A program made the translations under genes and the position numbers. This document shows, in pieces, positions 10,483-39,067 of a stretch of 64,000 nucleotides of DNA. The stretch's first letter is position 1. Every line of letters starts with the position of its first letter. Origin of the DNA: Marsupella aquatica. Its lineage: Eukaryota > Plantae > Marchantiophyta. The notes below the pieces were generated by a model. That model saw only the letters and a list, made by a program, of their open reading frames with translations. It was not told where the DNA came from and ran no database searches. Location of the stretch: the NCBI GenBank assembly GCA_973895155.1, contig OZ316892.1, positions 7,733,251 to 7,797,250 on the forward strand, in the 5' to 3' direction.

Positions 10483-11350
10483 AACACTAATTTAAACAAT
10501 AGTGTAATGTTTTATTTCCAGAAATTCCCAAATGCATTTATATATTATATTAATATATTATATTAATATTTAATTTAATTTAATATAATTATAAACAACA
10601 ATTTACTTAACTTTCATTTCAGTCTTTTGGTAGCAGTCCCGAAAAGCTTCCAAATATCATTTCTGGGCATAAGATTTAGTCAGATTCGTGCTAATTAAAG
10701 ATATTGAATCCTGGTTGGACCTTGCCCAGGCATGAAATTGTGCAAAAAACGCCCTCAGAAACGTCAAGCAGGCAACCTTATTGGGGAGTTGTCCTCGCCG
10801 GAATGGGTTTGGGAGCAGTTTGGGCTGGGTCTGGGCCACGATCGAGGGAGGGTCGGGAGCCGTTCAAGAGCTCTTCGGGAGTTTGGGAAGGATCCAAGGA
10901 AGTCTGAGGGATAATTAGGGAATATACCTCAATTGGTTGTTTTGTGTTTACGTGCCCGCCAATTAGTGAACTTGTCGCTTAAATGACCAATGCAACCTCT
11001 TTTATCACACTTATGTTTAAATTTTACTTTCTTTGCGCACACATTCAATTTGGTGCAACAAATATAATAACAAATTTACTAACACAGATACTGAAAAGAC
11101 AGAATTGAAACAAACATAGATTTGAGAATAGAATTACAAAAATAGTCAAAATATTATTTTATTTTAATCAAACAGTACATTGTGCATCTAAGAGCGAGCT
11201 AAAATCCACTCCTCTATAAAGTAAGCTACTTTCTACTTGTAACTAAGTATGGGCTCTAAATTTTGTGACATGATCTACGTTTCCCTTCCTTTGAAATACC
11301 GGACAAGATTTCCATTTCTTCTTATTTGTCTCCCAAGCTACATGTAAAGA

Positions 11351-11926
11351 CTATAGGGACCAATCCGGATAATAGTCTTCAATATAATGAAACGAATTCT
11401 CAAACTTGTAAAATCGAGAAAGATAAGGAATAAGTTGAGTTCTCAAAAATCTATCATCTTCATCTCCATGATATGGAGAAGGATATAAAGATGACCAAAA
11501 AGGGTTGCAAAATGTATTATCTGGCAAATCTAAAAGTGTCACGTTTTCTCTAATTATATGTGGCATCTTAAGGTACACAGTTTCAAGTAGTTTCAAATAA
11601 ACAAAGTCTTGGTTCGCATCGAGACCGATTCTCGATAATTTTTCTTTCCCAAAGGAAAACCTGAGGGTACTCCTTTCACTGTCGCTTAGTAATACTGCCA
11701 GGTATTTTGTCAGTATTTTTATTGACATCCGTGACCATATTCCTACACTAAAATTCTCAAAACAAAATTTCACAAACTGGCGGAAAAATGGTCTTGTACA
11801 TATTGTAACATTGTCCACCGCGATGAATCTCGACTTGTTGGTCTTCGATGATACCTCACAAGGATAATAAAGAAATGCATCCATATCAAGTACAAGCAAT
11901 CTTGTACCTTTAAAATATTTCACCAC
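11351..11926 (-). CDS. FCP1/SCP (NIF-type HAD) phosphatase-like domain, probably degenerate; transposon cargo
   Basis: Motifs LLVLDMDAFL (DxDx(T/V) with the Thr lost), RPFFRQFVKFCFENFSVGIWS, YLKLL, TLLDLP and DDRFL...LIPYL. An acceptor TTTGGTACAG precedes VVKYF. Confidence 0.7.
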   Translation of the reverse strand: MVKYFKGTRLLVLDMDAFLYYPCEVSSKTNKSRFIAVDNVTICTRPFFRQFVKFCFENFSVGIWSRMSIKILTKYLAVLLSDSERSTLRFSFGKEKLSRIGLDANQDFVYLKLLETVYLKMPHIIRENVTLLDLPDNTFCNPFWSSLYPSPYHGDEDDRFLRTQLIPYLSRFYKFENSFHYIEDYYPDWSL

Positions 11927-12047
11927 CTGTACCAAATAAAACAAAACATCACTCACATAATTATGTAACAACCCATATTTATGATGTCAATTTCATTAAA
12001 CATTTCACTTGGGAATGTATTATAAAATGAAGTCTGACCATAATAGC

Positions 12048-12735
12048 CTAACTAATATTTTTACGCATTAATTGGAGAACTACTTCACGTCTACTTTCAC
12101 TTCGACTACTCCAATGAAACAAATATGGTTTTCCTAAACTTTCACAATATCCGAACATAATTACAAACATTCCGCAATTATAGGAATCCTCCTGTTTCGG
12201 AATATCTTTTGGAAAGGATCGGCTCCAACCATTAATATCAGAAGAAGCTAATCCTTTATCTTTCGCTTTGTCTAAAATATACTGCCACAAATTGTCTAGG
12301 ACTTTAGAACCTGCATTATGAAAGGAGTCTAAATATTTCAAACTATTTTTCTTGAAGTCAATGACAGCAAGACTCCAATGAGAATTTTGGAGAATTGGTA
12401 CAAAAACTTTCTCACAGTCGAACAAGCTATATCCTAGTCTTGAGGACCATCTTGATATGCACGGACTATAACAATATCCGTTCTTGGTGAGTTCACCATA
12501 AAACCATGTGTTGAAAAAATGACATCTTGAAGATATCTTTTTTTTCTTTAGTAAAATGAAGTATCCATTAATAATATCCGAAGCCAGCCAGTATCGTGGA
12601 CGGAGAGATTTCATAACGTTACAAGTGATGTCGATGTCATCGATAGTGGTCAAAACCTCTCTATCATCCAAGGATAGACTGAGGCAATTGTCTATCAACC
12701 TCTTGCTACTTGCAGATAATGTAAGAGGCATTATC
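12048..12735 (-). CDS. Ulp1/SENP (peptidase C48) SUMO protease domain, spliced to the upstream charged exon (intron about 12736-12822); transposon cargo
   Basis: Motifs SLRPRYWLASDIINGY, FFNTWFY, KVFVPILQNSHWSLAVID, KYLDS and PKQEDSYNCGMF. The His, Asp and Cys triad and the oxyanion Gln are all present. Confidence 0.9.
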
Positions 12736-12822
12736 TGCAAAATCAAAGTTTAATTTAGCAACCTATTCGTTCAAGAAAAGTTGAAACCGCCTAAAGCTTC
12801 ACTAAAATTATAGAAATTGTAC

Positions 12823-15800
12823 CTTTGGAACTCGTGAAGAAGCAGACTCTGTTCTCGAGTTTATGGCTTTCAAATCTGATGCCGACAGTGTCTCTTTTTC
12901 AGTCCCATGAAAACTTGAATCAACGTCCACCATTGCAGAGCAGTCCGGCGGAACAGCGTTCCGCGGCTTAACGAAGTCTTTCTTAAAACAATCCTCAAAA
13001 TCGAGCTTCTGCTTTGAAGATTCCAAATTGGATAACTTTTGTTTCTTCAAGCGTCGTCCCCCAAAAGGGAGTCTTAACTCCCTTAAAGTATCTACGCATT
13101 GCATGTTCGTCGCCATGTCCAAGCTCGTATTGTTAGCTGATAAATGGATGAACTCGTCTGCTTCATTGCTAAGCACATCCGGCGACCACTCTCCATCTTC
13201 TTTTCCACTAATTTCAATCCTGTTCTTCCCTTCACTATTGACCCCGTTTTCCTTCTCCATCTCTTCTCTTTCCCTTTCTTCTGCATCTTTCCTCTCCTCT
13301 TGTTTGTCTTGAGCTCCTCTCCTCTCCTTCTCTTCGGCTTCATTCTTCTCCCGCTCTTCTGCATCTTTCCTCTCCTCCTCTTGTTTGTCTTGAGCTGCTC
13401 TCATTTCCTTCTCTTCGGCTTCATTCTTCTCCCGCTCTTTTGCTTCTTTCCTCTTCTTATCTTCTCTTTCTCTCTCTTGTCTCTCTTCGGCTTCTTTCCT
13501 CTCCCTCTCTTCTCTTTTTCTCTCTTCTACATCTTTCCTCTCCCTCTCTTCCCTTTCCCTCTCTTCTGCTTCTTTCCTCTTCTTCTCTTCCCTTTCTCTC
13601 TCTTTTGCTTCTCTTTCTCTCTCTTCTCTCTCTTGGGCTTCTTTCCTCTCCCTCTCTTCATGTTCTCTCTCTTTTCTCTCTTTTCTCTCTTCGGCTTCTT
13701 TCCTCTCCCTCTCTTCTTTTTCTCTCTCTTCGGCTTTTTTCCTCTCACTCTCTTCATGTTCTCGCTCTTCTCTCTCTTTTCTCTCTTCGACTTCTTTCCT
13801 CTCCCTCTCTTCTTTTTCTCTCTCTTCGGCTTTTTTCCTCTCACTCTCTTCATGTTCTCGCTCTTCTCTCTCTTTTCTCTCTTCGGCTTCTTTCCTCTCC
13901 CTCTCTTCTTTTTCTCTCTCTTCGGCTTTTTTCCTCTCACTCTCTACATGTTCTCGCTCTTCTCTCTCTTTTCTCTCTTCGGCTTCTTTCCTCTCCCTCT
14001 CTTCATGTTCTCTCTCTTCTCTCTCTTGGGCTTCTTTCCTCTCCCTCTCTTCATGTTCTCTCTCTTTCCTCTCTTCTCTCTCTCTCTCTCTCAAAGAGTA
14101 TGATAAGCCACTAATGATTCCCATGGCTAAGGATCATGATCTCATCATATGTGGGTAGGTCCCATGACATGCACTACGGACATATACCCCCCGTCACCTG
14201 ATACAGGGACAAAGTTAAAACTAAAATCCAGAATAACCAGGAGATAATCATCCGGCCACCAGAGCCATTGATTTATTCCCAAAACATCTGGGCCACACAA
14301 AACAACCAGATACCAAAGCCCATGACCTAAAAAGCAAGCCAAGATAGCGGCGCTACCAAGTCCAGCTATCCAGCCACAGAGCTTACATTTCTCTGAAAAC
14401 ACTCGATAGGTGAAGAAGCACACACCCTGTGGGGAGCATAGGCTGACATGCATGGCAGAGTAAGAGCCAGGACACACTGCACTAGCAAGAAGATCGTGGG
14501 ACCAGCAGCGAAGGCCAAGGATCAGGGACTGCTGAGGCAACACAGTGACACACAGCCTCTCGTGGCTCAATGGGAACCCCACCAAATCAGGTGCTAAGCT
14601 CACATTTTTTTACAGCAGATGTTGCTCCTTCTTTTCTATTCCGTTCACGACATATTGGTATGCATAAATGTGATGTTGGAGTTAATAATAAAAAGGAATG
14701 TCATAACAAGGCTTGGGAGACTCGACTTTTTCCGGCCCATGTCTCCCCGCAGCCGTCTAGACATCGCTGCAGAAACATGGGACTAGAAATTGTGCCTATT
14801 AAAGCACAATCTCGATCCAATGGCGGGGGCTGAACGAAGACATTGGAATTGTGAATGGAAACAGTCCGTCCATTCCCGGTAAAAGAATATGGTCCATGCT
14901 CAATGCTGTGGACACAGCGTTTGAGTACAACTGTCACCAAGCAGAGCTCAACATCGAAAGATACTCAGCTTTATAGACCTAGTTGTTTTGAAAATGGACA
15001 GTTTATAAATAAGAGTCGTTATACAAAATCAGCATGTCTGACTTCCATGGTTAATAGACGTTTGCAGTACCGAAAACTAGATGTGTGAATTATGTGTGAA
15101 TGTATGATCGATACTCTGCATATGATTGAATGTTGAATCAAGGAATGGCCAATAGAGAACAATAGGACCTGCTTTAATGTAGGATGTAATATATCTATGG
15201 ATATCTAAATATAATATCTCTCTTCGGCTTCTTTCCTCTCCCTCTCTTCTTTTTCTCTCTCTTCTCTCTCTTTTCTCTCTTCGGCTTCTTTCCTCTCCCT
15301 CTTTTTTTTTCTCTCTCTTCTCTCTCTTTTCCCTTGTCTTCCTTTCCCTTGTCTTCCTTTCCCTTGTCCTCCTTCCCCTCGTCTTCCTCCTTCTCGTGCT
15401 CTTCCTCCTCTTGTTTCCCTTCATCTTGATCTTCGTCATCTTTTTTTTCCTTCCGTTCTTCCTCTTCCTTCTCATCATCTTCGTCGTCTTCATCCCCCTC
15501 GTGCTCCTCGTCATCTTTCTTTTGCTTTCGTTCACCATCTTCCCTCTCCTTCTCCTCTCGATCCTTTCTCTCTTCTTCCTCCTCCTTATCTTTCTCCTCC
15601 CTTTCCTTCCTCTCCCTTTCCTCTCTCTCCTTTTTCTCTTCTTGCTCCACTTTCTCCCACCGTTCCTTTTTCTGTCGTTCCTTCCTCTCCAACTCTTCAC
15701 TTTCCTTTTTAAATTTTTTTGACACGTATACTTTTTTTCTTCTTTTTTCCCTGAAGTTTCGCCATCATCAACATTCTTTTTTGATTCTGAGGCAGACTTC

Positions 15801-16260
15801 AAGTCAAATTTGAGTTTTTTTGCTGCAAGCTCAAGCTCTTTCTCTAACTCTACCTTCTTTTTCCTCAACACTTTGGCTTCTCTTTCCCGACTTTCAGAAT
15901 CCTCTGAATCTCCTACTGACTTTCCGCTCTCCCCACCTGGTGACCAACCCTCATTCCCAAAATCTGCATTCACTGATTCGCTCTCGAAATCCCCATCAGA
16001 ATGTAAATTGCTTCCTTCACAATCACATCTGGATTTGGAACGTTGTTCTCCCCTTTGCGAGAGAGTCATTCTCGTCGTCATCGTCGTTCTCGTCATCATC
16101 ACCATCATCATCGTCACGTGCCTCTTCCTCGCGTTTGGATTTCTCATTCTCCTTATCTTGGTCTTTCTCATCACCTGACTCCAATTCCTCATTGTGGTAA
16201 CCGAGTCTCTTCAATGGACTAGGTAATCTCTTGCTTGAATGCGTCTAAGGGTCAACACCT
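12823..16260 (-). pseudogene. Acidic and E/K/R-rich coiled-coil linker exon(s) of the cargo gene, with frameshifts and a 1.1-kb insertion
   Basis: ORFs 16023-16214, 15077-16192, 15195-15725 and 12808-14124 form one low-complexity reading path with ERKEAEER repeats. It ends at donor AAG|GTACAA, in phase with the Ulp1 exon. Confidence 0.7.
14093..15216. other. 1.1-kb foreign insertion inside the (CT)n-rich coding repeat
   Basis: Composition changes abruptly, and the E/K repeat resumes on both sides (TCTCTC|AAAGAG ... ATAATA|TCTCTC). Confidence 0.6.
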
Positions 16261-16336
16261 AATATCACCCAATTCCATTTGTAGGTAAGTTCAAAATCAT
16301 TTTAATTAACAAAACCAGCAAGTCCTACTAAGCGAG

Positions 16337-16710
16337 CGGAACACCGTTCCGTCCGCAAATCTGAATAAGCTCGCGGAACACCGTTCCGTCCGCATATCCG
16401 ACTAAACGCACGAAACACCATTCCGTTCGCAAATCTGACTAATCGCGCCGAACACCGTTCTGTCCAAAAATCCAACTTAGCAAATCCTACTCAGCACGTG
16501 CAAAACCTTTCCGTTCAAAAATCTGGGTAAGCGCGCGGAACACCGTTCCATCCGCAAATTTAGTGTAGCCTTGCGGAACAGCGTTCCGTGGGCAAATCCG
16601 ACTAAGCGCGTGGCAAACCCATACCGTCAACAAAGACTTCGGAAGAACCCCGCGGAACACTGTTCTGTCCGCAAATTTAGTGTAGCCCCACAGAACATAG
16701 TGCCGTCGGC
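16337..16710. repeat. Intronic tandem array of about 9-10 units of about 37-40 bp, each built on the palindrome CGGAACACCGTTCCG
   Basis: Unit is approximately CGGAACACCGTTCCGTCCGCAAATCYGACTAAGCGCG, with copies at 16337, 16374, 16411, 16448, 16536, 16574, 16653 and 16691. It lies 3-prime of donor GCG|GTACGT at about 16776. Confidence 0.85.
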
Positions 16711-16776
16711 AAATATCTAACTCCAATGGCATGATCACATATACACAAAATCAACTTTAACTTTAAAAACACGTAC

Positions 16777-19700
16777 CGCCAAGAGGTCCTGATGGAAGGA
16801 TCTGAGGAAGGGAGTAGAGAAGGCAATCATCATCGTTATCAGGCCGCTCTTGTAACCCATACTCCTTGATGACATGCTCTATTTGATGATCCGTGAGTTG
16901 ATAGCTCTCATTGAGGATGTCAAGGATATCGTCCCTCACTTCAAAAATTGACTTCTTCTTCAAAATCTTTCTCCGGAGGAGGTTTTCAAATGTCTCACGC
17001 TTCGGACATTTTGGCTCTTCGAACGATGGATACAATGCGTTGAAGTAGTCAGACAAGAGGTCGTGGCTCTCGACAGGGCAAAAACTTGTCACAAATATAG
17101 AATTCCCCTATGTGAGAGAATCAATTGTGTTCATTAGTCATCAAATTGAGTTTAAACTTGCGAGAAACATGTAAATTTAAATAAATTCAGAAATCACACT
17201 TACCATTAAACATTCGATGAGACGACGATTGTCACCAAAACAAACAACGGAATCACCAGAGGATAGAAATAGTTTCACAAGATATGAAAAATATGTGGCA
17301 GTTTTCTTGTCGCTGAGACTCTCCGCGACGTCGACTTTGTCATAATTTGCAAGCTTCCCCCTCAAGGAGTCTCTCAAAGATGACTCCTTTTCTTCAGGAA
17401 GCGTCGAAGCCACAAATGCTTCATCAAACAAGGAATACAAGACATATTGTGTTCTTCGGCCTTCTGCTTCTAGCAAGATGTCATTTTTGTCTTTTTCGGA
17501 GCTCCGAAAAGTGATTTGGGCGGGGAGACATATGTATTTCTTTGTTGGAGTGATGCCTTGCATGACGTTGATAATCTCCAAAGGGTTGACTATCAGCACA
17601 ACTTTATGTCGCACAGCTCCAATAGTAGAAGTTGCTTGGAAAAACTGATGATAGAAATGATGGTCGTATGGACCATACTCAGATGTCCTCGTCGAATCAA
17701 AATAGAAAAGGTCCACTGGTGTATTCTCATAGGTTTGGGACAAACCATCAAAAAAGTTCTTTCCTCCAAACCCTTCAATCGATTGCAAATGAAACAAAAC
17801 ATTTTTTTCACCACAAGCAAATTTCTGTTTCGGTCGACAGATCTTGAAATTGAGTCGACCAAACCTTTGAAAGAAGCCGGAATAAGATAGATCAGTTCTG
17901 CCCAATTCATGTTGTTGAGCCTTCCAGATTGATATAGGCCAGGAGGTAGCAACTCCCTTAGCATATGCATCCGCTGCCCATCAATATGGAAAAAGCTGCA
18001 AACATCAGCAACCTTCTCCTTCCTCTCATCTTTGCTCAAAATGCAGAATTCGTTGATTTTGCTTCTCTCAGTGAACTCCAACAAAAATATGCATTCAAAA
18101 ATATGCTTATTCATTTTCTCGAGGCAAAACTCCTCAAGTGACCTCCACCCTTCCATTTGAACAGGGTCATAATTCTTGTCATTTGTCCTATTTGGGAAGA
18201 GCAACACCTTCTCTCTCGAAATCAAATACTTTGCCAGCTTTTTCAGATCTCGATCTTCAAGACCTTGCATATGCCGGAAAAACCTTCTCCGGAGATGCCA
18301 CATTGTTCTATCCTGATATGGCTTTGCTATGTGTTGGAGAACTTTATTTGAGTGGATGAGCAGACCATCTTCTGAGAGACATTGTCAAACTTCCATCTAG
18401 AGCTCAAATGTGTCGTCCTTCATCTCAAACAAAAACGGTGCCATCTCGATGAATCTCATGTTTCCATTGACCATCACAGCTGTTGGGTACGCAATATGGG
18501 CCGCTGCACAAAATGGCTGCAAATGTAGAAAGTTAGAAAGATAATAATAATGAAGATCTCAGGATCCCACGGAACATTGTTCCGCGGCTCGAGCTCTTTC
18601 AATTATTTATCAAATGACCCAAGTCAAAGAAAAATTAACATACCTTCCACATTGAATTTGCTTTTTGTCCGCTCAATGATGGTGGTCTCCCGGCCGACAC
18701 CCATATTTTCCTGACTTGCTTTGCCATCAGAAGAAACTGACTTTCTGGCATTGTTGCCTTGTTCATGTTGTTCAAAGCTTGTGAGAGGCCCATAATCTTC
18801 GTATTCCCAACGAGATTGAACGGTGTCCAGAAGAGAGAGGCTGTCACCATGAGGAGTTCCTCTTTTTTTTTTGAATCAAATTTTGGATCGGAAATCAGCA
18901 ATTTGTAAGCCTCAATCGTATGATGTCCTCCAATTATCCAGAAGTAGCAGTTCTTCACATCTTCAAGTGTTGGTCAAGACTTGAAGGGAGCTCCATTGTA
19001 GAATGGATCTTTCTCAGCTTTGCTTGCATCCCACTGGACTGGAACGAGGTAGACTCGAGTCTTCTCAAGTGCAAGGGAAGAATGACCCATCATTGAGCCC
19101 TTCAGAACTTCACAGTATTTCCGATCAAAGACTCGGCATTTGTAGTCATCGGGTCCTAATTTACATCGAAGTGTTGCCAGCTCAAAGGATTTTCCTTCAA
19201 ACAAAGTCACTGATTTATATTCATTCAGAAGATTACTAAACATTTCCTTTGCGTTCTTGTCGTTAACTTCCTCTGGCAGATTTCTCGGACGGATCTCCCC
19301 TTTTCTCCCTACGATGAAGTCTCGAACAAAATCTTCCTTACTCCACTCAAAAATACTCGTGAAGTAGAAGGTAAGAGTATCTCGCGGAAACTACTTCTGG
19401 TGTTATTGGAAAACGGATGTCTTCATTGAGTAGTCGGTGGGAAGTGAAATCTCTGTACTTCTTTGTCTTTTCCAACTCCACGTCAATCCCTGCTTGGTCA
19501 AACTTGTTGTACTCTGGGAGCCTCAAGCAAACAACAATTTTGGGTTGCTCCTCAATATCTTCCAGCAAAAGGCAGAGACACTCTTGATACTTGGCAAGAC
19601 CAAGGTTTCGTTTGAAGAATGAACCGACTATCTTGTGGTCGGCTATTATGGAGAGTGACTCCGTCTCGACACAAAGAAAAAGGCATCCCCCATACCAAAC

Positions 19701-19869
19701 CACCCCCCATCTCTGACATTTCTCCATCTTCAAGGGATGGACTGATTTTGACTCGTCACAAAAAACCTTTGGAATCAACGTCACGACGAGTCACCTTCCA
19801 AACTTTATTCCTTCGGGGTGTTTTGGACTGAGCCTTTCTTTTTGACGATGAAGTCATTGTGGAATCCAT
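16777..19869 (-). pseudogene. Multi-exon cargo gene: ParB-like N-terminal domain followed by a degenerate beta-class N6/N4 DNA-methyltransferase-like region; stops and frameshifts
   Basis: ATG at 19869. The ORFs chain through homopolymer frameshifts, an in-frame TGA at 18974 and GT-AG introns (about 18518-18643 and about 17109-17203). Motifs YFWIIGGHHTIEAYK, VDLFYFDS and YLVKLFLSSGDSVVCFGD. Domain calls are by eye. Confidence 0.55.
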
Positions 19870-20014
19870 TTGCACAAAAAAACGATTAGGAGAGTCATGC
19901 TTGTCAACTGGCGGAACACTGTTCCGTCTTCTAAGGAGTTAATAGAACAATATCCCAAAATGTCATCCGCGCATTTTATTGAAAAAATTTGGAATACATC
20001 AAGTCCTTGAGTAC

Positions 20015-20557
20015 TCATTTTGGTAGGACCTGGAATCTCTTCTGGACTACTTCCCTCTCCTCAACATCTAAACTTTCCCACAACAACCAGAATAAGCAAC
20101 TGTCCAACGGAAGAAGTGATCCAAGTATCTCAATATTTGGAAACTCGTAGAGGTTGTCTCTAAAGATGTGTAGCAGATGGCGCGATATTAAAAGGTTGGC
20201 TTCTGGAATGGTAGAAAGTTCATCGTTGATCTTCTCTATTTTCTCGTTTGCTTCTATCAGAGCAAACCAAAATTTTGTATGTTTTACTAAAAATTGCCAC
20301 TTCTTGTTGCATGACGCAAGTCTGATCATGGCAGTCGTCCTCGAGACAAATGATTCTTGATCAAGTCCTCCGCATTGAAGACTGTGATCCATCAAAAGAG
20401 GCCAAATTTTGTCAATCACCAAACTGTCTGGCAGACCTTGCATGTACAGAGAATCGGGATTGAGCCTTTGTCTTTCAAATTTTGCCACTTTCTCAAGATC
20501 TTTGAGTAAATCGCAAACCTTCTCAACCTGCACGGCTCTGCTAGAGACTTCGTCCAT
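20015..20557 (-). CDS. F-box-like protein, transposon cargo
   Basis: GLPDSLVIDKIWPLL ... MIRLASCNKKWQFLV fits the F-box pattern LP-x-I-x-L ... l-rl--v-k-W--l. Confidence 0.55.
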   Translation of the reverse strand: MDEVSSRAVQVEKVCDLLKDLEKVAKFERQRLNPDSLYMQGLPDSLVIDKIWPLLMDHSLQCGGLDQESFVSRTTAMIRLASCNKKWQFLVKHTKFWFALIEANEKIEKINDELSTIPEANLLISRHLLHIFRDNLYEFPNIEILGSLLPLDSCLFWLLWESLDVEEREVVQKRFQVLPK

Positions 20558-20587
20558 CCTGTCGGATTGATCAAACGGAACTTATTA

Positions 20588-21144
20588 TTAGCAAATTCTA
20601 TCTAGATTTGAAGCCATTCTCAAGATATCCGGTTTTGTAACAGAGTAGAGTAAAATCCCATTTTTTGATGGGATACAGGAGGTCATATGCCTTCGTGAAT
20701 GTTTCTTGAAGGTTCTTGGGCATCGATCCCAAAAATTTAATTTCTGGATACTTTCGATAGAAGCTATAGGTAGTTTGTTCGAGAAGAGGAGCAGGAATGA
20801 AATCAATGGGAAACTTGACTTCTGTGGGGTTGAAAGTCTAAAATAGTCATCTTGAGGACACCCATGATATACGTATTATTTATCAAGTGGCGCCATCTGC
20901 GAGAGATAGACCTCATCAAAATCAATGAATTCAATTCTGAATCCGAGAATGAACTTTGGTCTACCAAGGTATTAAAATATCCTAGACATATATTCCAGAT
21001 TAACTGCTCCACGAGTTCGTTGGGAAGCCTTGGAAGTAGACTTTTTCCCAAGAGATCGTATTCTTGCGTAAGAGAACACTGGAGTGCGATATATCTGTCA
21101 AATGTTGGGCGAAACTTATTGAAACACTTAACGCCTTTTTTCAT
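20588..21144 (-). CDS. Second F-box-like protein (ORF 20803-21144, probably continuing by frameshift into 20588-20806)
   Basis: LLPRLPNELVEQLIWNI ... LILMRSISRRWRHLI. Confidence 0.55.
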
Positions 21145-21230
21145 CGTGTCTGCAATCGCATGAGATTTGTATGAAAGTCAGAGTTTTTTCGCCTTGTCTA
21201 ACAAACTAATATCTTACATTCTATGTCCGA

Positions 21231-21975
21231 CGGAACACTGTTCCACAGGGTGATTGGGTTGGTTTGGGCGGAAGACTTGTGATTGGTGATTGCCTTGGTT
21301 CGGGCGGAAGACTTCTCCATTGAGAGCTATGCTATTGCGGACTCTAAAACGGATAGTACATTCGAGCAGGTGGAACAGCGTTCCGCAAGGTATTCCAGTT
21401 AGATTCACCTTGGGAGGAACCCTCTTGATTCCTGGCCCCCATTGAATTTCAGAGGAGGCGGAAGGGCATTCGAGTGGGTGGACCACTTAGATTCACCTTG
21501 AGCGGAAGACTTTTCCCTACTGGGCGGAACTCAATTTCAGAGCCGGCGGAACACCGTTCCGTCGGGTGTTCAACTGAGGATCTGCGTGGGGTCAACCGTT
21601 TTCTTTCTTGAGCTGGATTGAATTTCAAAGGAGCCGGAACAGCGTTCCGCCTGATGTTTGACGAAGGTTCACCCAAGGCGGAACAACATTCCGATATATA
21701 TATTCTCTCAAAGAGGTTTCAGAGCAGGTGGAATAGCGTTCCGCCTGATCTTGGACGAAGGTTCAAACTGGGCGGAATAACATTCCGTCATATATATTCT
21801 CTAAAAGAGGTTTGAGAGCAGGCAAAACACCGTTCCGTGGGGATTTTTTGACCCCGTCAATCAGCGAGACACCAAAAGTATGTTGTTCGGTGTGTGACGG
21901 GGTTTCACAACGGGTGGAACACTGTGCCGTGGGGTGTGCAACGTCGTTCAAGAGCACGCGGGACACCGTTCGGTG
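21231..21975. promoter_or_regulatory. Cluster of about 10 CGGAAC-nnn-GTTCCG palindromes upstream of the minus-strand cargo genes
   Basis: Copies at about 21231, 21371, 21547, 21635, 21679, 21730, 21773, 21823, 21915 and 21959. A regulatory function is inferred. Confidence 0.6.
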
Positions 21976-22099
21976 GAATAAGTGGATCCCATCAAGAAGG
22001 AGAAGACTGATGAAGAGGATCTGAGATTCTACGAAAGATAATCTAAACCCAAAATTATATTCGTACAAGAAAGCACGGGATTCGTTTAATGCATCAAAT

Positions 22100-25000
22100 C
22101 AATGACTGGTTCCTAAAAGAGAGATTGGATTGTCACCTGAATCCGCAAACGATATAGTGTGAGATCTTTGTGAGTGATTGATGAAAGAGAGGCCTGCACC
22201 TGAATGAGGAAACCTAGCATTACTTAAAACATCCATTAACATCCACTGAGACTGAATTGTCATAAGAACTATCACTAGCAGACTGAAGCAGCTGGAAACT
22301 ACAAGCCCTAAAACAAGAAGCCATGAAAAGACCTCTTCAAGTGTTCAAACATGTACAGTAGAACATACACAAAGTGGACAATTGAAGTTACAGGATAAAT
22401 CTGACATTACCAATCTCAGGAGAAGGAGCTGTCAAGCAGGAGGAGTTGATCACCTGAAGCTGTTGATGCCCTAAACCAGTCGATGAGCTGAATCAGTTGA
22501 TGATCTGAGGAGCTGAAGTAGTTGGACAATCAAGAAGAGAATGAGTAGCTCAACTAACCAGAGAACTGAGGAGCAGCAGGAGAGCAACAGCAGCACAGTT
22601 CGAGCAGAAGTACGAGCAATAGTAGCAAAGCGAGAGTAGACCTAAAGCACAAATGGAATGAGTGAGCAATGAGCGTGAGCGAGTGCCCGGATGAGCGAAT
22701 GAATGATCAAGCAAGTGAGGTATCAAGGGAGGAATGAGCGGGGAGGAGGAGCGAGTGATTGAGCGCAAACAAATCAAGCGAGTGATCGAGCGAGAGAGAG
22801 AGCGCAAGCAAGAGAGCGAGAGAGTGAGCGCAAGCGAGAGAGCGAGAGAGCAAGAGGGAGAGCGCGAGTGAGAGAGCGAGAGAGCGAGAGGGAGAGCGTG
22901 AGCGAGGGAGTGAGAAGTGAGAAGTGTTCTCGAGAGGGAATCCGGAAGTAACGGGTTTAGGGTTAGTGAGAAGCGCAATTAAGTGGTGCCTCTAAGTGAG
23001 TCCTTGAGGCATGTGTTAGGGCACCCCTAAACTAGATTAGGAAATACATCATGGAGGAGGGATTTGGACCCCTCATATAGGCCCTCCAATCTCCAAATAA
23101 GTTGGTGCAAATAGCATGGATCCAAAATGGTACATACTCCTTATAAAAGGACCCTTGAGAATGGTTACAAAGTAATTGAACTAAAACTAAGTATTACTGT
23201 ATGTTAGTAAGTGGATACCCTATAACATCCATAAATATCATTCAGACATTGTGTATATAATGAGGCCCATGCATGGCCATTGACATGTTCAGCATTAGTC
23301 CATGATTATTTTGCAGTTGTGGGCAAGGCTCCATCCTCACTTTAGCCTAACGGTTATTCTTACAAACGACAACATCTATGGAGTGTCTATTGATACCAAA
23401 TTTTTTGCAAGAAACCAATCTTGTTTTGTAATAGTAGTCACACTATTTGGTATTAATGGAATTGGTTACATTTTTGGACAATAGCATGGACAAAACATAC
23501 ATTAAATTGAGAGTCAGAGCCCAGGCAACTAATTTACACTAATTTACAACACTCAGGCCCTCCAACTGCTTTGCCTATTTAAACAACTCATAGGTGGTGT
23601 CAACCACATAAATCAGTTATCATTAATAAAACATTTTAGTTAGAGAGAGAGAAACTCTTACAAACAACTTTGAATCAGATTGAGTGGATTAAATAATTGT
23701 CACTCTCCAATAACTGTTAGTAGAATATGTAACTCTCCCCACAAATCGTAGAACTACAAACTTATACACTAATATTAGAGTCCAATAAATATAATTTCAT
23801 GCAACTTCAAACCATTCAAGTGCCACATCCTCCATAGCCCTAAACCACTCTTAAAAATGTCATGCTGTAGATATTTATTCGTGCCAAAGTGGTCACAAAA
23901 GCACGATCAAAAATGGCAATTGTTGGGCTTACCTAGCATTTTCATAGTTGAAGAAACACAAATGAATTCACTACTCAGAACCTAGTAAGTTAGTGGAAGT
24001 CAGCCGTAGAGTAACATATCTGTGAGTCCATAGAGTCAACAAATACAAGCTTGTCTGATATTGGGAGCACAAAGGAAGCACCGAGAGACCAGCAATAAAG
24101 ACCATAAAAATGAATGAATTACCAAAATTATCATAAATAATGGAGACGACCAACAACGCTTCCTCCATTGAAAGTGGGAAATTGTTGAGTATTGACAAAC
24201 GACCACAAAACCACTCGAGCCCCCAGCATACACGTTGAAAAAAAAGGGCCGAGTTGAGATGGACAATAGAACAGCCAGTCTCAGAAGATGTGAGAAATGG
24301 CCCTGGTCACTCCAAGAGTGGACCGAACAAGAAAGAGTGGTCATGCCAAGATTTTGAGTATTCTCCGGAACCCAACTAAACAGGACCACAGGAGCACTGA
24401 ATGGACATACTTAAATAGATAATTTCCCATCTTAGCAAGGGCTATTGAGTATAACAAAACTCATATCACACCATCACAAGGAATCTGCTTAATATGATCT
24501 TTAAGTTTTTTCAATCTTTATTACCTACTTGTGTGACATGGCTCCAACCCAGGTTAATGTCACATATGTAGAAGATGTTTACTTACTCCATGATCTCAAA
24601 CATGGCAATTGGGTACAATATTCAAAACTCATCCTTGCACTATCTGTCTTTTGTTGTGATCAAATGGTGATAAACAGTGGAAACCTAGCATAAGACATGT
24701 TGACCAACTCAATAATTTCCATACTGCACACAATGAACACAAATCAAGCAGCTCCAAAATAATCTTTAGAAGATAGATTGCATTCAGAAATTCACAAGCA
24801 TACTTAATAGAGCAAGTTCATGCCATTCATTATGCCCTCTTGAGGAGCCTAAGTAAGTGGAAACCAACAAATAGCATTCAAGAAAATCAGGAAGGTTATA
24901 AACCCACCACACATCAAAATGTGAGATGTGAACCACCATGTAGAGAGAACCAGTGGCCATGGCCCTTAGGTGTGGCATGGGTCTAATTCCTAGGGAATGG

Positions 25001-26200
25001 GTTCCACCATTTTGCAGATTTTCCCTTTTCGGGGTGAAGAGCAACCCTATAGTTGGCATAGATGCAAGGGTTCTGGAGGGTGCCCTCCTTGAGACTAGTG
25101 GCATGCCCCTTGGTCCGACTCCATCAAGAATGAAGGAGTTGGTCAAGCTTATGGTGATAGGTAAGCTTAGAACTCTTGAATTTCTCTACAAGTTGGTGTA
25201 CTCTTTCATGTGACTTTGGATGACTTTTATTAGAATATTAGAGACTACGCTCTTGGCACCGCAATTGAGTTGATAGCCCGCGCGACACCATAATAGGCGC
25301 CGCACCGCATTTGAGTTGATTGCGTACGTGGAAGAGTAGATAGAGTACTAGGTTAGATTTCACTAAATCATGTTGCATGCATCCATATATCGAGGGATGC
25401 AGTATTGTAGGCCATGCAATCTTATAGTATGCCATGTGTCATGTCAGTTGTTTACTTGAGTTGGCTCTACTGTATAAAGCCTTGAGCCCATTTCTCAGTA
25501 ATTCAAGCGTTCTTTACTTTACTGTAAATACTCCAACACTCTCCACACATGAGCTCACTCTCTCCCTCAAGCCACTTTGTTGCAATGAGCATGCATTATC
25601 ACACAAGTGGCTTACACTAGCCCTGGTATATGCCTCACACACAACTTACTTACTAACCTATTTACCTCACCTAAGTCCCTAACAGTGGTAAGTTAGCCTA
25701 ATTGCCGTAACCTATGAGTGACAAGACTAAGAGCAGAACAAACACCCCCCATGTACCCCTTCTTAGTATTTCTGCTTACAAAAAGATACCTTGTTAATGT
25801 AAATTAAAGTATTAACTTTTCCTATTAAATTTGATCCAAGAATAATATAACTTCACACAATGAGCCAACTCTAACAAACATTGTTTGAGCACTTGGTGTA
25901 AGAAAAGGGCAATGCGGAAAATGAGAGCAATCACTCAATCTCACACTACACCAACATGACACCATGATCATACTTGGAGAAACTCCGTAAGGATCCATTT
26001 GATACCCGATTTGATAGCTCATGAATGATTGAGATTGAACATGTGAAGAATGAGGGAGAGAATGCTCTCCCTCTAACCTATACCCTCCAAGGGGGACTAA
26101 GATGTGTGGGCCTAAATAAGTGGATGTTATCCTAAACTAACCAAGGGTCAATTAACCCTAGTAAGGCCAGACTAACTATAGTCGGGAACTCGAGTCAATT
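22100..26200. mobile_element. Probable nested, highly decayed retroelement remnants (GA-rich tract 22600-22940; LTR-like segment about 25236-25684)
   Basis: TATTAG...CCTAACA contains a TATA-like TATAAAG and is followed by a degenerate PBS-like GTGGTAAGTTAGCC. The region has no convincing gag/pol ORF and no Sola palindromes. Confidence 0.3.
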
Positions 26201-26416
26201 CCTAAGAAGATGTCATTGAGACAAACAGACGTTGTGTCGCCCAAGATGCCGTTAAGAAAATATAGAATGTGGTGTCACATAAGATGTTCTTAAGAAAAAA
26301 ACTGTCGCACAAAAAGGGCGCAGAAAATGAGTAACAACCACAAACTATCACCAGTTCAGGCAGGCGGAGGAGGGATTCACTCGGGACCGTCTTTGAGAGC
26401 AGGAGAGGAAGCAATG

Positions 26417-26839
26417 ATGTCAAAGCGAGGGCGCGGAGGTTCCTCCGGGAACAAGTTCCGTATGTCACTTGCTCTGCCCGTCAGTGCTGTGGTGAATTGT
26501 GCCGATAATACTGGTGCAAAGAACCTTTATATTATCTCAGTGAAAGGAGTACAAGGACGCCTGAACAGGCTGCATGCAGCTGCAGCACGTGATCTGGTGA
26601 TGGCCACAGTCAAGAAGGGGAAACCTGATCTAAGAAAGAAGGTCATGCCTGCTGTCATCGTTAGGCAAAGGAAGCCGTGGCACCGCAAAGACGACGTGTT
26701 TATGTACTTTGAAGATAATGCGAGAGTCATCGTGAATCCAAAGGGAGAGATGAAAGGATCTGCGATCACGGGACCAATTGCGAAGGAGTGTGCATATTTG
26801 TGGCCTAGAATTGCAAGTGCCGCGAATGCCATTTTGTAA
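26417..26839 (+). pseudogene. RPL23: Intronless full-length (140 aa) 60S ribosomal protein L23/uL14 retrocopy with substitutions at conserved sites
   Basis: [18 protein letters not shown]...[13 protein letters not shown]...[11 protein letters not shown]...[11 protein letters not shown]. The frame is open, but RLH/ARD, WHRKDD, EDNAR and CAYLW replace the usual RLP/GD, WRRKDG, EDNAG and CADLW. Confidence 0.9.
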
Positions 26840-26917
26840 ACTTCTTCTTTTTAGTTTTACACAGTTTGAGCACAATCATGCAAATACAATAAACTCTAGA
26901 TAAGTGACACTCTCACT

Positions 26918-27132
26918 ATCCGATTACACTAATTTTTCCATTCCTTGATAAGTGCACATCCCCTAAAATTTTCACTTACTAATAAATGGCATCTCCACAG
27001 GTGAGCAGCCGTGTGACTCATTACACAAAATGTGAATACTTGCCATAAATTTGATGTCCATAAGTCCAAATTTTCCTTTACTAAAAAAAAGGGTGTGCAC
27101 TTATCAGTAAATTAATGCAATCTCATTGGATT
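26918..27132. mobile_element. Small MITE-like inverted repeat
   Basis: TGATAAGTGCACATCCC (about 26946) is inverted to GGGTGTGCACTTATCA (about 27091). Similar GATAAGTGC/CACTTATCA words occur at 46400-46690. Confidence 0.4.
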
Positions 27133-29212
27133 ATGTGCTTCCCGATAACTGTACCATCTTTCTTAGTTTGAGTAAGGCACTTATAAATTGTTTTGCATTT
27201 AATAAAGTTCTCATGTAGCTAAATGACTTGATATTTATTTGGCCTTAGATAAGGTGGAAAAAATGCAAAACTTCTTGTAAAATGAGAAGAAAGACAAAAC
27301 CAAATTGGCTCTTGGACAGAACCAGTTGTACATTGGGGCAAGGGTAAATTTTGTATAGAGAAGATTGAGAGATTGGGATTGACAAATACATTAGGTTCAA
27401 ATAGATTAGGTCGGGGTATGTACTTGCAAGTACAATGGGAGGATAGAGGGGTGAATCCATTGGCCTACAATAAGGAAGGTATATAGCCAGGGAAGAATAC
27501 TTGTACTTGTTTTGCAGAATTACCTTTTTGCAGGGTTTGGTTCATTTGTTTCTCCTATACTAAGTTTCTTTAGAATTTTTCTGAGTGACACACAAACTGC
27601 AAATTCAAATAACGACCACTTCAAAAAAGGGCGCATTCAACTCTTTATTATAGTTCTTGATTTTCCCGCATGTCCGGCCTTCATTTGTTGACATCTTTCA
27701 GATTGGTATCAATGTATTATTCAGATTAGGAAATCATGATGATGGTTATATGTGTAATTAAATCATGATGAATGATGATTAGTTAAATAATATACATTAA
27801 ATATTAATTATTTTTAAAAATTAATAAATCCAGAAGTATAATTTTTAAGTATTTGATAAACATACTCATTTGTCCCTCAACCATTAACCCCTAATAACCC
27901 ACAATAGTTGGCTCAACTAGGTTCAACTATGTGATGGGGGTCCAAAGATAATAGTTTTGTGAAACATACATAATTAGTTACTGCAAGACTAGAACTTCTA
28001 TACTGTCTCCGTTGTTCTAAAGAGACCAAAACACAGTAACCAATGTATTATAACTAAGTATGATGTATAATTATACTATTTAATGATGACCGGACCGAAC
28101 ATTTAATGATTTATCTTTTTTGTTTTACTTCATTCTTTCTTTCTTTTTCCAATTTGTGAAGCCTAAGTAATGTGACCAAACCCCTTTGTCACAGGCCTGC
28201 TTAATGTTTGTTATGCGATATTGGAAACATTTCTGACTAACAGTGAAAATTATGGTTACTTTGGTCCGAACATTACCGGGATCAATACCTGAACATTTAC
28301 GGTCCAATGTGTACATGAAATCAGACAGTCTGCTCACATCTACAAGACATCACGTTTGAGTGTTCAACCGTAATTGCATGGCACTATAAGTATAAGAGGG
28401 AGACCATCACAGGTAAAAATGGTCCCCAACAAGGTCCCTACCAAGGTCTTCATAGGGTAAAATATGAATTTCGAATTTCGAATTTCATATAATTAGGTCC
28501 GCTCACATGTGCATGAAGTACAAGTGTTCACTTTCAAATTTCAAACATCAGATTCGTCCCCGCACATGTGCATCAAGTACTGTCAAGTATATACTTTCAA
28601 ATTTCAAATTTCAAACTTCCCCCCAAAACCGTGAAGGTGAGCAAGACGGGATGAGTATTCTGTTTGTCGTCCCATCTTTTCATTTCATTTGGCAATTGTG
28701 AATCATGGAGCGAGGCTGAGAACAAGTTCAACATCTGCGTTTCTCGGAGGTTTGGAGCTTGGTTGAGCTCGGGAGAGTTTTGATGTGAATGAACAATCCC
28801 AGAGACTCGACGATTCATTGAAAGGGGCATCAGAGATTCATCGTTCGCGATCCACAATCTCAGACTCAGGAGTCGGAGACTACTCGACATTGTCATTGAA
28901 TAAGGTACTCGGGAGGGTTCTTTTGAAATTTCTATCATTTAAGAGTAGATCGTCCACTTCTTAGACTAGAAAGTATGTTCATTTCAGTTAAAATCCCAGC
29001 TTCATGTCCCAACTTATGCCTTCATTAGAATTTATTCTGAATAATCTCATTGGATTCTTGAGATATTGGAGTTCTTGTGACTGGATCCTACTTTCACTCT
29101 GTTCAAAAATATAATCTAGGTCTCGTGGGGATCTGAGAGATTCCTCTGATGAAATCTCTTAACAGAGTCTTGTCGCAGAGAAGAATGTTAAAAACTGAGA
29201 GGGAGAGGGCGA

Positions 29213-29878
29213 CAGAACACCGTCCCGTGGGGTTCATGAGTTGTGGTTTCAAGGAATGGATGTTAGCCGAGCAGTGATAGTGACATTAAACTTCTTAGGA
29301 TGACTCTTCTTGGAGATACCACTGGTTGATGTTGATTGACCGACGGAACAGTGTTCCGCCGGCACAGTTCAATATTGGTTTGATTGATGTTTTTGAGTTT
29401 TATTTATGATGATGTGTTTTTTGAGATCCCTACAATATATTTTGAGTGGCCCACGGAACAGTGTTCCACCTCCACCGTTAAAAATTTGTGCGATGAAAGT
29501 TCCAGTTTTAATGATGAGTATGTCTTTTATTTGAGATACCTCCCATTGATTTTGACCGACTGACGGAACAGTGTTCCGCCAGCAGAGTTCAAGATTATTG
29601 ACACATGAAGTGAATTTGGAAGGAAGGGCGGAGATCGGGTTTTGCAAAATCCTTTGTTATCTGGTTTGGTTTGAGGGTATTTTGATGGAGAGACCGCGGG
29701 AGAGACGTGACATTTTAAAGTTGTCCTGCTGAAAATTATTGATGTGCATTTCAAAACAATCGGCAGAACACTGTTCCGTGCGGTGTTGGAGGATATTTAA
29801 AATGAGAGAGGGGTATTCATTTAATCTTGAGGGACTTTTGAGTCGTGATGGATAATTACCTACATGACAGTGTTCCAT
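29213..29878. promoter_or_regulatory. Cluster of 5-6 CGGAAC-nnn-GTTCCG palindromes upstream of the transposase
   Basis: Copies at about 29213, 29345, 29454, 29564 and 29765, with a half copy at about 29868. Several are spaced about 110 bp apart. Confidence 0.6.
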
Positions 29879-29969
29879 TGTATTTGTCAATTAATTTATG
29901 AGAGATACATTATTCTTATCAATAACCATGTTTTGGATTTAATTGTAATTGGTTCATCTGTTCTGACAG

Positions 29970-32900
29970 AAACATAGTAAACTTGAAGAGCTGGATTCGA
30001 GTTGGGAAAGAGGTTGGGTTATGTGTTGGAGCCTCTTTGGTTGGGAAAGGGACGATCATAAATCTTGATCCGACGGTCAAGGTAGATGATTGCTCACTTG
30101 GTTCGGATAGAGTGTTGGTAAGGATTGACAAAGTTCTGAGAAATGGCGATGGAGAGAATCCTATATTTGACTCAAACTCCACAAGACCTTGGAGAAGGAC
30201 CGATCTTTTGCCGCTTGCCTCTGGAGATTTTGGAAATTCTGAGATAGGAGGGTACGAACATGGAAATGAAGGTCACGATGGAATTGGAGAGGGGAGGGAG
30301 CACCAAAAGGAGATCATAATACGCAGGTGTGATTGGAGAGAGATGACGGTAAAAGTCATTGATGACAATAATGTCAACTTCTCAATTGCGATGGTGAGTA
30401 CAACTAATCCGGATGTGGTGTTGCAAGGCACATTGCTTGGAGAGACACATGTTGGTATACTCATCATGGAATTCGTTGATGGTGCTCGAAGAGAGCATTT
30501 GAAACATAAAGATTGCCTTGTACCATGGCCAATTACAAGGTTAATTGCACCGGGAAAAAGTTTACATTACCATTTTCAGAATCAGAGGCTAGAACGACAG
30601 GACGTCTCAAGCGGGAAGAGGTCATATGTTAGTAAAGTGAGACCTCAAAAGAAACCACGGAAGGATCTGACTAGGAAAGAATGAGCCCTATCACCCGAGG
30701 ACATCCTATTGATCAGTACGAATAATTGTTGTCGGCGTAAATGTTGTCAATACTTTGACCGTGACTTGGCTCTAAAAATTAGGGAGAAGTACTTCAGTAA
30801 GTCATTTCAAGAAAGGAAAGAGGAAGAAGTGTTGGCGATTCAGAATGCGCTAGACACATCCGACGGAGAGAGGTTGTTAGGCGTTGAAGGAGTTCCAATT
30901 TGTCTTGAGGCCTGGAAGGTATTGCATGCCAAGAAGAAGACCCAATTTGATATTATGAAGAAGCAAGTTCGGGAAGGATTGAAGATATCACAACATGGCA
31001 ACCAAGGGAAAAAAAGGATGTCAAAGAGAGTCTCGCAATCATTGATGTCAATGAAAATGATTATTGATGAGAGTGCAGATAATCATCCTGCAAAACAAAG
31101 AACTTTGGCTGACAACTCTCAGGTAGGTCTTCGGGAGTTGCCGACAAGCGTTACTTGGGAGACTATCAGGGATCGGGTGAATGGCATAAACATCGCCCTT
31201 GGCCTCCGCCCAACATCCCAACCAACAATGAGTTTCCTTCACCAGAAATATTTTTAAGAAGTTCTGATTCACAAGAAGGGAAACAACTTTTCGAAATGCA
31301 ACACTTGTAGTGAGTTGCAGCAACGGAGGTCTCGCCTTTCTGGAGGAAAGGAAGAGTTGGAGATTTTCAGACGAGATGAGGAGGAGCATCATGAAGATCA
31401 CATGCAGGGGAGACTCTTATATCATGCTTGGAGGTCGCATTCTGTTGCACATCCCAAAGAGTCAGTCTGTATCATCCATGACAAAATGGACCATTGTAAG
31501 ACTGCTCTTCCAAAAATGCCATGGAATCCAAAAGATTGCGATGGCTCTGTTCGACTGCCCATCACTGTAACCGGCATTTTAACTCATGGTCATGGGCCTA
31601 AGTGTGGCTCAGTACAATCTTGCTTGTTGGGCTCCGGATTCAAATGCAAGCATTGGGTCTATAGACTCAATTCTTCGTATGTTGGAAAATCCTGAACCTA
31701 TGATCAATTCACTTCTGGAAGGGCCGGATTCCACAAACGTTTTCAACAATCTTCTATGGGGGAGAAAAGATGTTCTTGAGGAAGATGTTAGGAAAGCATT
31801 TAATGACGACACCAGATTCATTGCGGAGCAAGGTATGAAAGTCTTCTACATATTGACAATGCTCAATCCTATGATTTTGTAGCATTATGTCCCTTTTTGT
31901 GAATCCATGTACAACAAGGCTACTTTGTGTCCATAATTTTCTAAAACATTGGGATTTGTAACAATGCAGCCGAGTCATCATCTTCACCCCCGAGTGATTG
32001 TTTCAGGCCTCTCCCACGGACATTGAAATTACAACTTGACAATGCACCAAGTGACAACAAGAACAGATTTGTTATGGCATATTTATCATTGTTAACAGCA
32101 AGGAAGGTATTTGAGGAGGTTCAACTTGGATTCCTTATGGTTGGGCACACTCATGAGGATGTTGATGGGATGTTTGGGCATTTCTCAGAATCTCTTATGC
32201 ACAATCCAACATGGACATTGCCTGATTTGATGAGCTTGTTCATGAAAGCAAGAACGCCAAGTCCGGTTCCACATTTTGTTCAAGAAGTACCCGATTTCAA
32301 AGGGTATGTAGAACCTTTTCTACTAAGAGGCCCAGACTCATTGGTGGGGCATGGAAAGCCCCGACTATTTCGATTCTATGTTCGAGAGGATGGGATGCCA
32401 TGCTTTCAGTATAAGCTCAAGTCAAATGATGTTGTGCCATGGGTGCCAAAGGAAGGGATTGAAATGTGGAGGTGGGGAAATGATGGATGTCCAAACCTTC
32501 CACATGGGATGCCAAAAAGACTTCCCATGACAGAAATAAGCATGTTGGCTGATGTTCGTGTAGGGATACAAAAACATTTAAAGTTCTTCCAATTGATTGT
32601 GGATAGAAGCAAGACAGAGGAATCAAGAGAATCTTGGGACGATCTCATCCAATACTGGAAGGTTGTCTTAGCTACATTGGAAACGGAGGTTGTACAATAT
32701 AGGCAAGAAGATGGAGACAACTTGAAAGGCGGATTTTGGCCTCGGTCAAATTGGAAGGACAATGTGCCTGTCACTTTTCGGAATGTTGCATGTGAGTTGG
32801 ATGCAAGAGAGTACTATGTTGGACCTGTGAAAAATAGGCCACGAGAAGCCTTTCAACCAAGAGTAGATATTGTCAAAGGTCATTTTATTTTGCAAAGACC

Positions 32901-38965: not shown

Positions 38966-39067
38966 GCAGGATTTCTGGCTATTTCAGATTCACCAAACGA
39001 TCAACCATCACGCGGAGCATGATGCACGGGCCGCCGTGAGAAAGGTTTGTTTCAGTGTGCTCAATTC

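Follow-up and report, generated by a model that had tools for sequence, protein, structure and literature searches.

A conserved spaced dyad inside a decayed, probably Sola1-type giant transposon of Marsupella aquatica: a candidate site for the element's own cargo protein

Sola1-1_Ec32 of Ectocarpus is a 21.5-kb transposon with a 4-bp target site duplication (TSD) and with a gene for a ParB-like and N4/N6 methylase protein opposite its transposase (PMC12477816; what is said here of any cited paper refers to the accessible part of its text). Its authors propose that this accessory protein binds and modifies the element's own sequence and cite similar proteins for green and red algae, and no binding site for the ParB-methylase protein is given in that part of the paper (PMC12477816). 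Fusions of a ParB helix-turn-helix with a methylase have also been described in chlorophytes and chytrids (PMC4738411), and in Arabidopsis the VANC motifs form tandem arrays within introns and between genes (PMC5735166). Here we describe a stretch of 64,000 nucleotides from the land plant Marsupella aquatica (assembly GCA_973895155.1, contig OZ316892.1, positions 7,733,251 to 7,797,250 of the forward strand), the whole of which is called the window below and in which a decayed giant DNA transposon (10483-33624; 23,142 bp) carries repeated copies of the dyad CGGAAC-nnn-GTTCCG. An earlier, sequence-only reading had proposed this dyad as a self-recognition code of the element. We put at about 0.42 the probability that a ParB-like/methylase-fold/SUMO-protease protein encoded by the element binds the dyad, which would then work like the motifs of VANC and TnpA, the binding itself being a prediction.

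The dyad is a real, non-random feature of this DNA. Ten exact matches and 17 matches with at most one mismatch were found in the 64-kb window, all within 12949-29778, whereas 100 shuffles gave at most 0 and 1, respectively; at up to one mismatch the rest of the window, including a second transposon at 53.5-59.4 kb, has none. With two mismatches allowed there were 27 matches inside the element and three beyond it (4511, 43392, 44934), 30 in all. The match at 26446 sits in a nested RPL23 retrocopy and was dropped as a chance occurrence, leaving 26 element sites, so that the "about 25" copies counted by the sequence-only reading are recovered at this looser threshold and only 10 of them are perfect. 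Among dyads with 6-bp arms, CGGAAC/GTTCCG alone exceeds three recurrences in the window. Over spacers of 0-9, 18 matches were found with one mismatch or none, and in 17 of these the spacer was 3. It had been written as three free letters, which it is not: column counts of the 26 sites give the consensus R-CGGAACA-S-YGTTCCG-Y, with A at position 7 in 26/26 and C/T at position 9 in 25/26, and the conserved word comes to about 17 bp. The same counts contain a weaker preference for C and G four bases out from the dyad. The spacing does not suit a heat-shock, E2F or steroid-type element, and such readings were set aside.

The sites are distributed over six separate places. Single perfect dyads lie at 12949-12963 inside a coding exon, at 18570-18584 in a 127-nt intron (18517-18643), and at 19912-19926, 42 nt before the ATG of the cargo gene at 19869. 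A tandem array of ~37-bp units (16337-16705; 10 units, 8 of them with at most two mismatches) occupies the intron 16259-16776. Ten dyads are clustered at 21231-21973, upstream of F-box-like genes and partly in 94-bp (44+50) units, and five at 29213-29778, 5' of the transposase coding region, three of these at a 110-bp period. A pattern scan bore out every place that had been named before, with 42 nt in place of 43 before the ATG. The description "at promoters and introns" suits the 25 of 26 sites that are intronic or in upstream DNA and fails for the exonic copy at 12949, and the five sites said to lie upstream of the transposase may in fact be in its first intron (candidate GT at 28905, AG at 29969). 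The dyads are internal rather than subterminal, as had been claimed, the outermost lying 2466 and 3846 nt inside the two ends of the element, and we saw no likeness between the dyad and the terminal inverted repeats (TIRs). Read on the plus strand, the outer flank letters are G..T at 12 and A..C at two sites in the minus-strand gene region, and A..C at three and G..T at one in the transposase cluster; the dyads tend toward one orientation relative to transcription, the sites not being independent of each other.

The dyad is likely under selection, because transversions are avoided in its core between repeat units. In globally aligned units of the 110-bp and 94-bp arrays, unit-to-unit transversions number 0/52 in the core and 62/249 in the flanks (p 2e-6), and in the 37-bp intron array, with two degenerate units kept, 10/130 and 41/220 (p 0.005); these p-values overstate independence, the units having been picked out through their core and having a common ancestry. 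Across the six places identity drops to background beyond about 23 bp. Many diverged copies of the family are present in four contig sets from two studies, and one of them, about 80% identical and collinear over 18658-22585, appears to keep the same dyad word: three pieces of 21-22 nt align in otherwise unaligned upstream DNA, each on a dyad, with alignment joints at 19929>21549 and 16352>22281. At six places in the 21231-21973 cluster where the present copy mismatches (21245; five more rows), other copies show the consensus letter, and the active family seems therefore to have had cleaner sites than the present copy. The nested DNA at 22.1-26.2 kb, which had been taken for debris with no clean copy of the dyad, indeed holds none, but at least 22.28-22.59 kb of it belongs to the family, the diverged copy being collinear with the element there.

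A palindrome of this kind could also act as a signal in hairpin or cruciform form, or simply result from the turnover of tandem repeats, and no protein dedicated to the double-stranded site would then be needed. Folding of six sites gave a hairpin in every case (z -1.4 to -3.8), and flank pairing among the 26 sites exceeds the shuffled level at position 3 (14 vs 7.4) and at position 8 (19 vs 8.9). However, the two core-adjacent flank positions are unpaired (6 vs 10.8 and 9 vs 11.0 expected, of 26), the letters of the would-be loop are conserved, and the six separate places share the core alone, which drift of one array would not give. Rfam gave no match. A hairpin role is weakened by these results, and we regard this whole explanation as quite improbable.

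The same core was found as the stem-loop of bacterial arrays. The tandem-dyad pattern GGAAC-NNN-GTTCC occurs in 102 metagenome loci (L001-L102) in arrays of 2-13 copies and in 0 loci of the viral contigs, and none of the 102 loci has blastn or tblastn similarity to the element. The dyad core is thus not unique in nature, and the element specificity claimed for it stands within the window, at up to one mismatch, and not beyond, the core being arrayed in these unrelated loci. Many of the loci are intergenic bacterial arrays that look like repetitive extragenic palindromic (REP) repeats. These arrays do pair at the core-adjacent positions (218 vs 144 and 215 vs 97, of 306), their flanks co-varying as stems, unlike the nearest flanks in the element. 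That the arrays might be parS sites was entertained and dropped: among 101 neighbouring open reading frames (ORFs), covering 51 of the 64 loci of at least 2.5 kb, there was no ParB or methylase, and Y1 transposase ORFs adjoin 3 of the 51 loci. REP-like intergenic arrays with co-varying flanks include L004, L006, L013, L017, L020, L044, L045, L065 and others. Direct arrays were seen in GC-rich contigs with a period of 43 bp (L002, L008, L051, L055) or 51 bp (L033, L052, L056, L080); these are possibly iteron-like, and several of their neighbouring ORFs belong to no family.

The element that carries the dyads is likely a giant Sola1-type transposon, a label that rests on the TSD and the layout rather than on comparison with named Sola1 transposases. 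Sola1 elements are marked by 4-bp AWWT target duplications (PMC3845634). The left end consists of ATAT at 10479-10482 followed by a 20-bp TIR starting AACAC (10479-10502, plus strand), and the right end of the matching 20-bp TIR, with two transitions relative to the left one, followed by ATAT at 33625-33628 (33605-33628, minus strand). The ATAT on both sides agrees with AWWT, although ATAT is self-complementary and could alternatively be part of the TIR. A weaker inverted likeness of the ends extends over 97 bp at 71%. The insertion split a 17-bp tandem array (10250-10482 and 33625-33970), and removal of the element in silico restores a unit of it; a reading of the arrays at 10.3 and 33.7 kb as subterminal repeats was rejected since they have the same orientation and represent the split target. 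A few words similar to those of the 17-bp array occur, reversed, near 26220-26290.

The transposase (DUF7869; 29926-33270, plus strand; PF25273, E 3e-36) is divergent from the cargo genes and contains several in-frame stops. Its closest named relatives are proteins of Calypogeia fissa with 59-60% identity, which points to a liverwort host. Its alignment gave nothing usable against PDB sequences, and no relatives with flanking DNA were found in the viral or prokaryote collections. By eye, a Transposase_23/DUF8039-type domain seems to be present twice in the N-terminus (29926-30681), and the C-terminus resembles a Tudor/PWWP-type domain, both with no family match. The present copy is dead, with stops and frameshifts in both main genes.

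The main cargo gene, divergent from the transposase, runs on the minus strand from an ATG at 19869 to a stop at 12048 (12048-19869), has five exons and is broken by stops and frameshifts. Because its four GT-AG introns (18517-18643, 17108-17203, 16259-16776 and 12735-12822) join in frame, one cargo protein is predicted; its sequence suggests an N-terminal part followed by ParB-like and helical parts, a methylase-fold domain, an acidic linker and Ulp1. An insert of 1.1 kb with unrelated composition (~14100-15215) splits a low-complexity exon of the gene. The exon at 12048-12734 (minus strand) encodes a Ulp1/SENP SUMO-protease domain (PF02902, E 1e-25) that matches SENP2 (1tgz) with E 2.5e-30, and the His-Asp-Cys residues of the Ulp1/SENP C48 proteases and the oxyanion Gln are aligned, SUMO as the substrate being predicted. 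The sequence-only reading had overlooked the likely fusion of a pseudo-methylase with a SUMO protease in this cargo.

The region 17180-17980 (minus strand) carries the methylase-fold domain. As an ORF it had no usable match in Atlas or PDB sequence searches, and its eight relatives all come from run assemblies. In the model of one relative (P0032; mean predicted local distance difference test score 73.5) the domain has the beta-class N4/N6 methylase fold, matching CcrM (Foldseek E 8e-7; Z 13.5, root-mean-square deviation (rmsd) 3.5, 182 aligned), MboIIA (Z 12.9) and RsrI (Z 12.3). The catalytic motif (D/N/S)PP(Y/F/W) is absent from all seven rows that cover it: D-x-x-x (DSTR, DGTI, DSTL, DSSI, DSMV, DCSV or DATL) stands in place of DPPY/SPPY at a position read from alignment A1 and assigned by strand order, not by residue-level superposition. 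All seven covering rows retain the catalytic loop's first Asp, and an F-G/S-x-G/N loop is present in 8/8. Since DPPY/SPPY is replaced and its first Asp alone is kept, the domain is likely catalytically dead or unusual. Beta-class amino-methylases are described in other eukaryotes, Marchantia DN4MT1 (10.1101/2021.02.12.428880) and rotifer N4CMT (PMC8885841), both of which belong to the host and have (T)SPPY intact; the cargo domain, as modelled in the relative, resembles them in fold (N4CMT 8s9n: Z 11.3, rmsd 3.9, 176 aligned) and differs in being transposon cargo that lacks SPPY.

Compared by description and not by sequence, the element resembles Sola1-1_Ec32 in size (23.1 against 21.5 kb), in the 4-bp TSD, in termini that start with AAC, and in a ParB-like/methylase-fold gene on the strand opposite the transposase. 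It differs by its land-plant host, the degenerate methylase motif, the fused acidic linker and Ulp1 domain, and the additional NIF and F-box-like genes; its TIR is 20 bp long as against 282 bp, and a candidate cis site is found here only, as far as the accessible description of Sola1-1_Ec32 goes (PMC12477816).

With the motifs of VANDAL elements and VANC the dyad shares the arrangement of a short motif in tandem arrays within introns and intergenic DNA, the VANC motif regions also being methylation targets (PMC5735166, PMC10398659). The VANC motifs are words of 8-9 nt in a Mutator-like element, and the accessible parts of these papers do not mention palindromy (PMC5735166, PMC10398659); the dyad, for its part, is known from sequence alone. 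No ORF scanned in the window matched a VANC-type family. Like the sites of VANC and TnpA, the dyad is a short motif clustered where the non-coding DNA of its element is tandemly repeated, and for Spm TnpA it is likewise the density of clustered motifs that gives specificity to an element-encoded regulator (10.64898/2026.08.24.746577). The TnpA sites are terminal and asymmetric (CCVTCGCAAA), unlike the internal dyads here. According to the same preprint, transposases suffice to activate cognate copies in a sequence-specific manner, and the transposase of the element, which has a long N-terminal part with no family match, could bind the internal dyads and so activate its own copies. TnpA, however, binds at termini (10.64898/2026.08.24.746577), whereas here the TIR is unlike the dyad and the nearest site is more than 2.4 kb from the ends. 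We consider the transposase an improbable binder.

Bacterial systems offer a further comparison. The KorB operator OB and F-plasmid sopC are spaced dyads with a central S that are scattered at promoters or arrayed at a ~40-bp period, and the dyad of the element is like them in all these features. It differs from the parS consensus, and no ParA partner was detected by Pfam among the element ORFs scanned, unlike in ParB/parS systems.

In the mechanism that we propose, all exons of the cargo gene would form one protein with a ParB-type DNA-binding dimer in its N-terminal part, and this dimer would dock on the dyad. Occupancy of the sites would act together with removal of SUMO, which has a role in transposon silencing, from nearby silencing factors; an action other than DNA methylation is envisaged because DPPY/SPPY is lost. 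The two divergent gene sets of the element would thereby be kept from silencing and their genes on. Tandem-duplicated clusters would raise occupancy on the element above that on stray host sites, as in VANC and TnpA, and a copy that loses the protein or is silenced would have its sites methylated and would decay, which would be the state of the copies seen. The self-recognition that had been proposed for the dyad is partly supported: the spacing is fixed, the core is conserved while its flanks diverge, the sites group around gene starts and within introns, the TIR is dissimilar, and the cargo belongs to a class already proposed to bind its own transposon (PMC12477816). A more far-reaching version, in which a ParB-derived dimer reads the 17-bp parS-like dyad as in a bacterial operator system, brings a dead methylase together with a SUMO protease to its own chromatin, cancels host silencing and co-evolves with the dyad in each family, seems to us doubtful.

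The cargo might instead bind the dyad as a repressor, in an autoregulation like that of KorB, whose operators are spaced dyads spread over promoters; the dyad just before the cargo's own ATG would suit such a role. It might also be a self-marking methylase, depositing N4-methylcytosine or N6-methyladenine with an unusual active site, to which the conserved Asp and F-G/S-x-G/N loop would be favourable. The PPY residues, however, are missing in 7/7 rows, and a change of SPPY abolishes the activity of rotifer N4CMT (PMC8885841). The fused SUMO protease would fit anti-silencing better than either role, and we give the repressor or self-marking explanation a small chance.

Several observations weigh against the binding of the dyad by an anti-silencing cargo protein, beyond the relatedness of the repeat units noted above. 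The first concerns the identity of the ParB-like region (18644-19390, minus strand), which was recognised by eye from its IIGGHHT word and by the likeness in layout to Ectocarpus Sola1-1. The layout speaks for the ParB-like cargo named by the sequence-only reading, but the region has no Pfam or NCBIfam match and matches phrog_1033 (ParB-like in PHROG) at only E 0.22 over 20 residues; the ParB identity is weak. Homologue searches with longer forms of the ParB-like piece and with the cargo alignment found none, which is weak evidence, and the cargo alignment gave nothing usable against PDB sequences. The first 45 residues of a relative's model, where a helix-turn-helix would lie, are of low confidence and have no match among those listed. 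The model of the helical part had no Foldseek match at E <=0.001 (best Z 4.1), and in Atlas this part gave leads below 0.8 only.

The second concerns methylation. Variation among genomic copies was read over 21472-21945 (run X1; 40 of 41 variant rows seen). Variable positions make up 14/84 in the arms and 25/390 outside, and all 14 arm variants are transitions; CG positions vary in 7/34 cases in the motif and 5/32 outside, and CHG positions in 9/21 and 5/43. The protection from methylation that had been inferred earlier is not supported by this check of decay around the motifs, in which cytosines of the motif vary no less often than those nearby, nor is it refuted for copies that are dead. Transversions number 0/105 in the motif and 8/369 outside, and in the present copy 17 of 23 motif mismatches are C>T or G>A. 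Judged by its substitutions, the pattern is that of methyl-cytosine decay after insertion. Because the core decays between copies by C>T/G>A changes only, the copies seen were likely methylated and not protected. Lasting protection is not visible in these copies, which are dead or of uncertain activity; in Arabidopsis, VANC target regions are likewise targets of RNA-directed DNA methylation (PMC10398659).

The CpG content adds little in favour of protection. Near the clusters it is 0.70-0.73 once the motifs are masked, with 1.24 for the intron array, and so for the most part resembles the cargo coding DNA (0.67-0.77). The coding parts of the element as a whole have 0.5-0.77, as against 0.28 in the nested DNA at 23-26.2 kb and 0.29 in the other transposon, a difference that could be explained by youth alone. 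A correlation of CpG content with distance to the nearest site (rho -0.36, p 0.025, 38 bins) was discounted, the far bins being mostly the 3' half of the transposase.

A further point against the cargo protein as binder comes from outside the element and favours a host transcription factor, whose site the element would have captured and multiplied as a dyad for transcription in a chosen cell type. A span of 239 bp (44695-44934), situated some 0.4-0.65 kb upstream of where a host terpene synthase gene probably starts, contains four CGGAACA half-sites. Such tight clustering was found for 1 of 880 composition-matched 7-mers and 12 of 8192 overall in the 33 kb of unmasked DNA that surrounds the element. 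A host factor would also account for the conserved core and its location at gene starts, and the half-site CGGAA of LBD proteins resembles that of the dyad. None of the four half-sites is a full dyad, however, the best having two mismatches, and within the window full sites at up to one mismatch are confined to the element, the second transposon having none; moreover, the half-site cluster was spotted post hoc and lies in CpG-rich DNA. We judge the host factor unlikely as the explanation of the dyad. If it does bind, the case would be a more ordinary one, of a transposon multiplying a host site.

If the cargo protein binds, the element would represent a form of anti-silencing that arose separately from VANC and TnpA and that combines bacterial parts with SUMO removal. 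The cargo class and the logic of motif clusters are already known; for a candidate cis site paired with a pseudo-methylase/SUMO-protease fusion we found no published description. Literature searches turned up neither this dyad nor a land-plant cargo of the ParB-methylase-Ulp1 kind, nor any target site for the ParB-methylase cargo proteins of giant transposons; with Petroll 2025 and the Ectocarpus sequences beyond reach, an earlier description is possible. The window thus gives a specific candidate pair, the 17-bp dyad and the ParB-like/pseudo-methylase/SUMO-protease protein, which makes the idea of self-binding directly testable.

The element contains other genes besides the transposase and the five-exon cargo gene. 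A NIF/CTD-phosphatase-like cargo ORF lies at 11351-11986 on the minus strand (PF03031, E 2e-10) and gave nothing usable against PDB sequences. Two F-box-like ORFs at 20015-21177 (minus strand) have weak Pfam F-box matches under the cut-off (E 0.07 and 0.02). The nested RPL23 retrocopy (26294-26839, plus strand; PF00238, E 1e-36) comes just after the reversed 17-bp-array words mentioned above.

Around the element, a Prp31-like splicing factor gene was recognised by eye at 1579-5200 on the minus strand. The plant terpene synthase-like gene, seen by eye from ORF translations, has several exons and occupies 39000-44300 on the minus strand; a tandem array of about eight units of 70-74 bp (38407-38965) lies just past its 3' end. 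The second, unrelated transposon-like region (53500-59400, minus strand) contains long ORFs, among them one with an NSD-type PHD finger, is strongly depleted in CpG (0.29) and carries no dyad.

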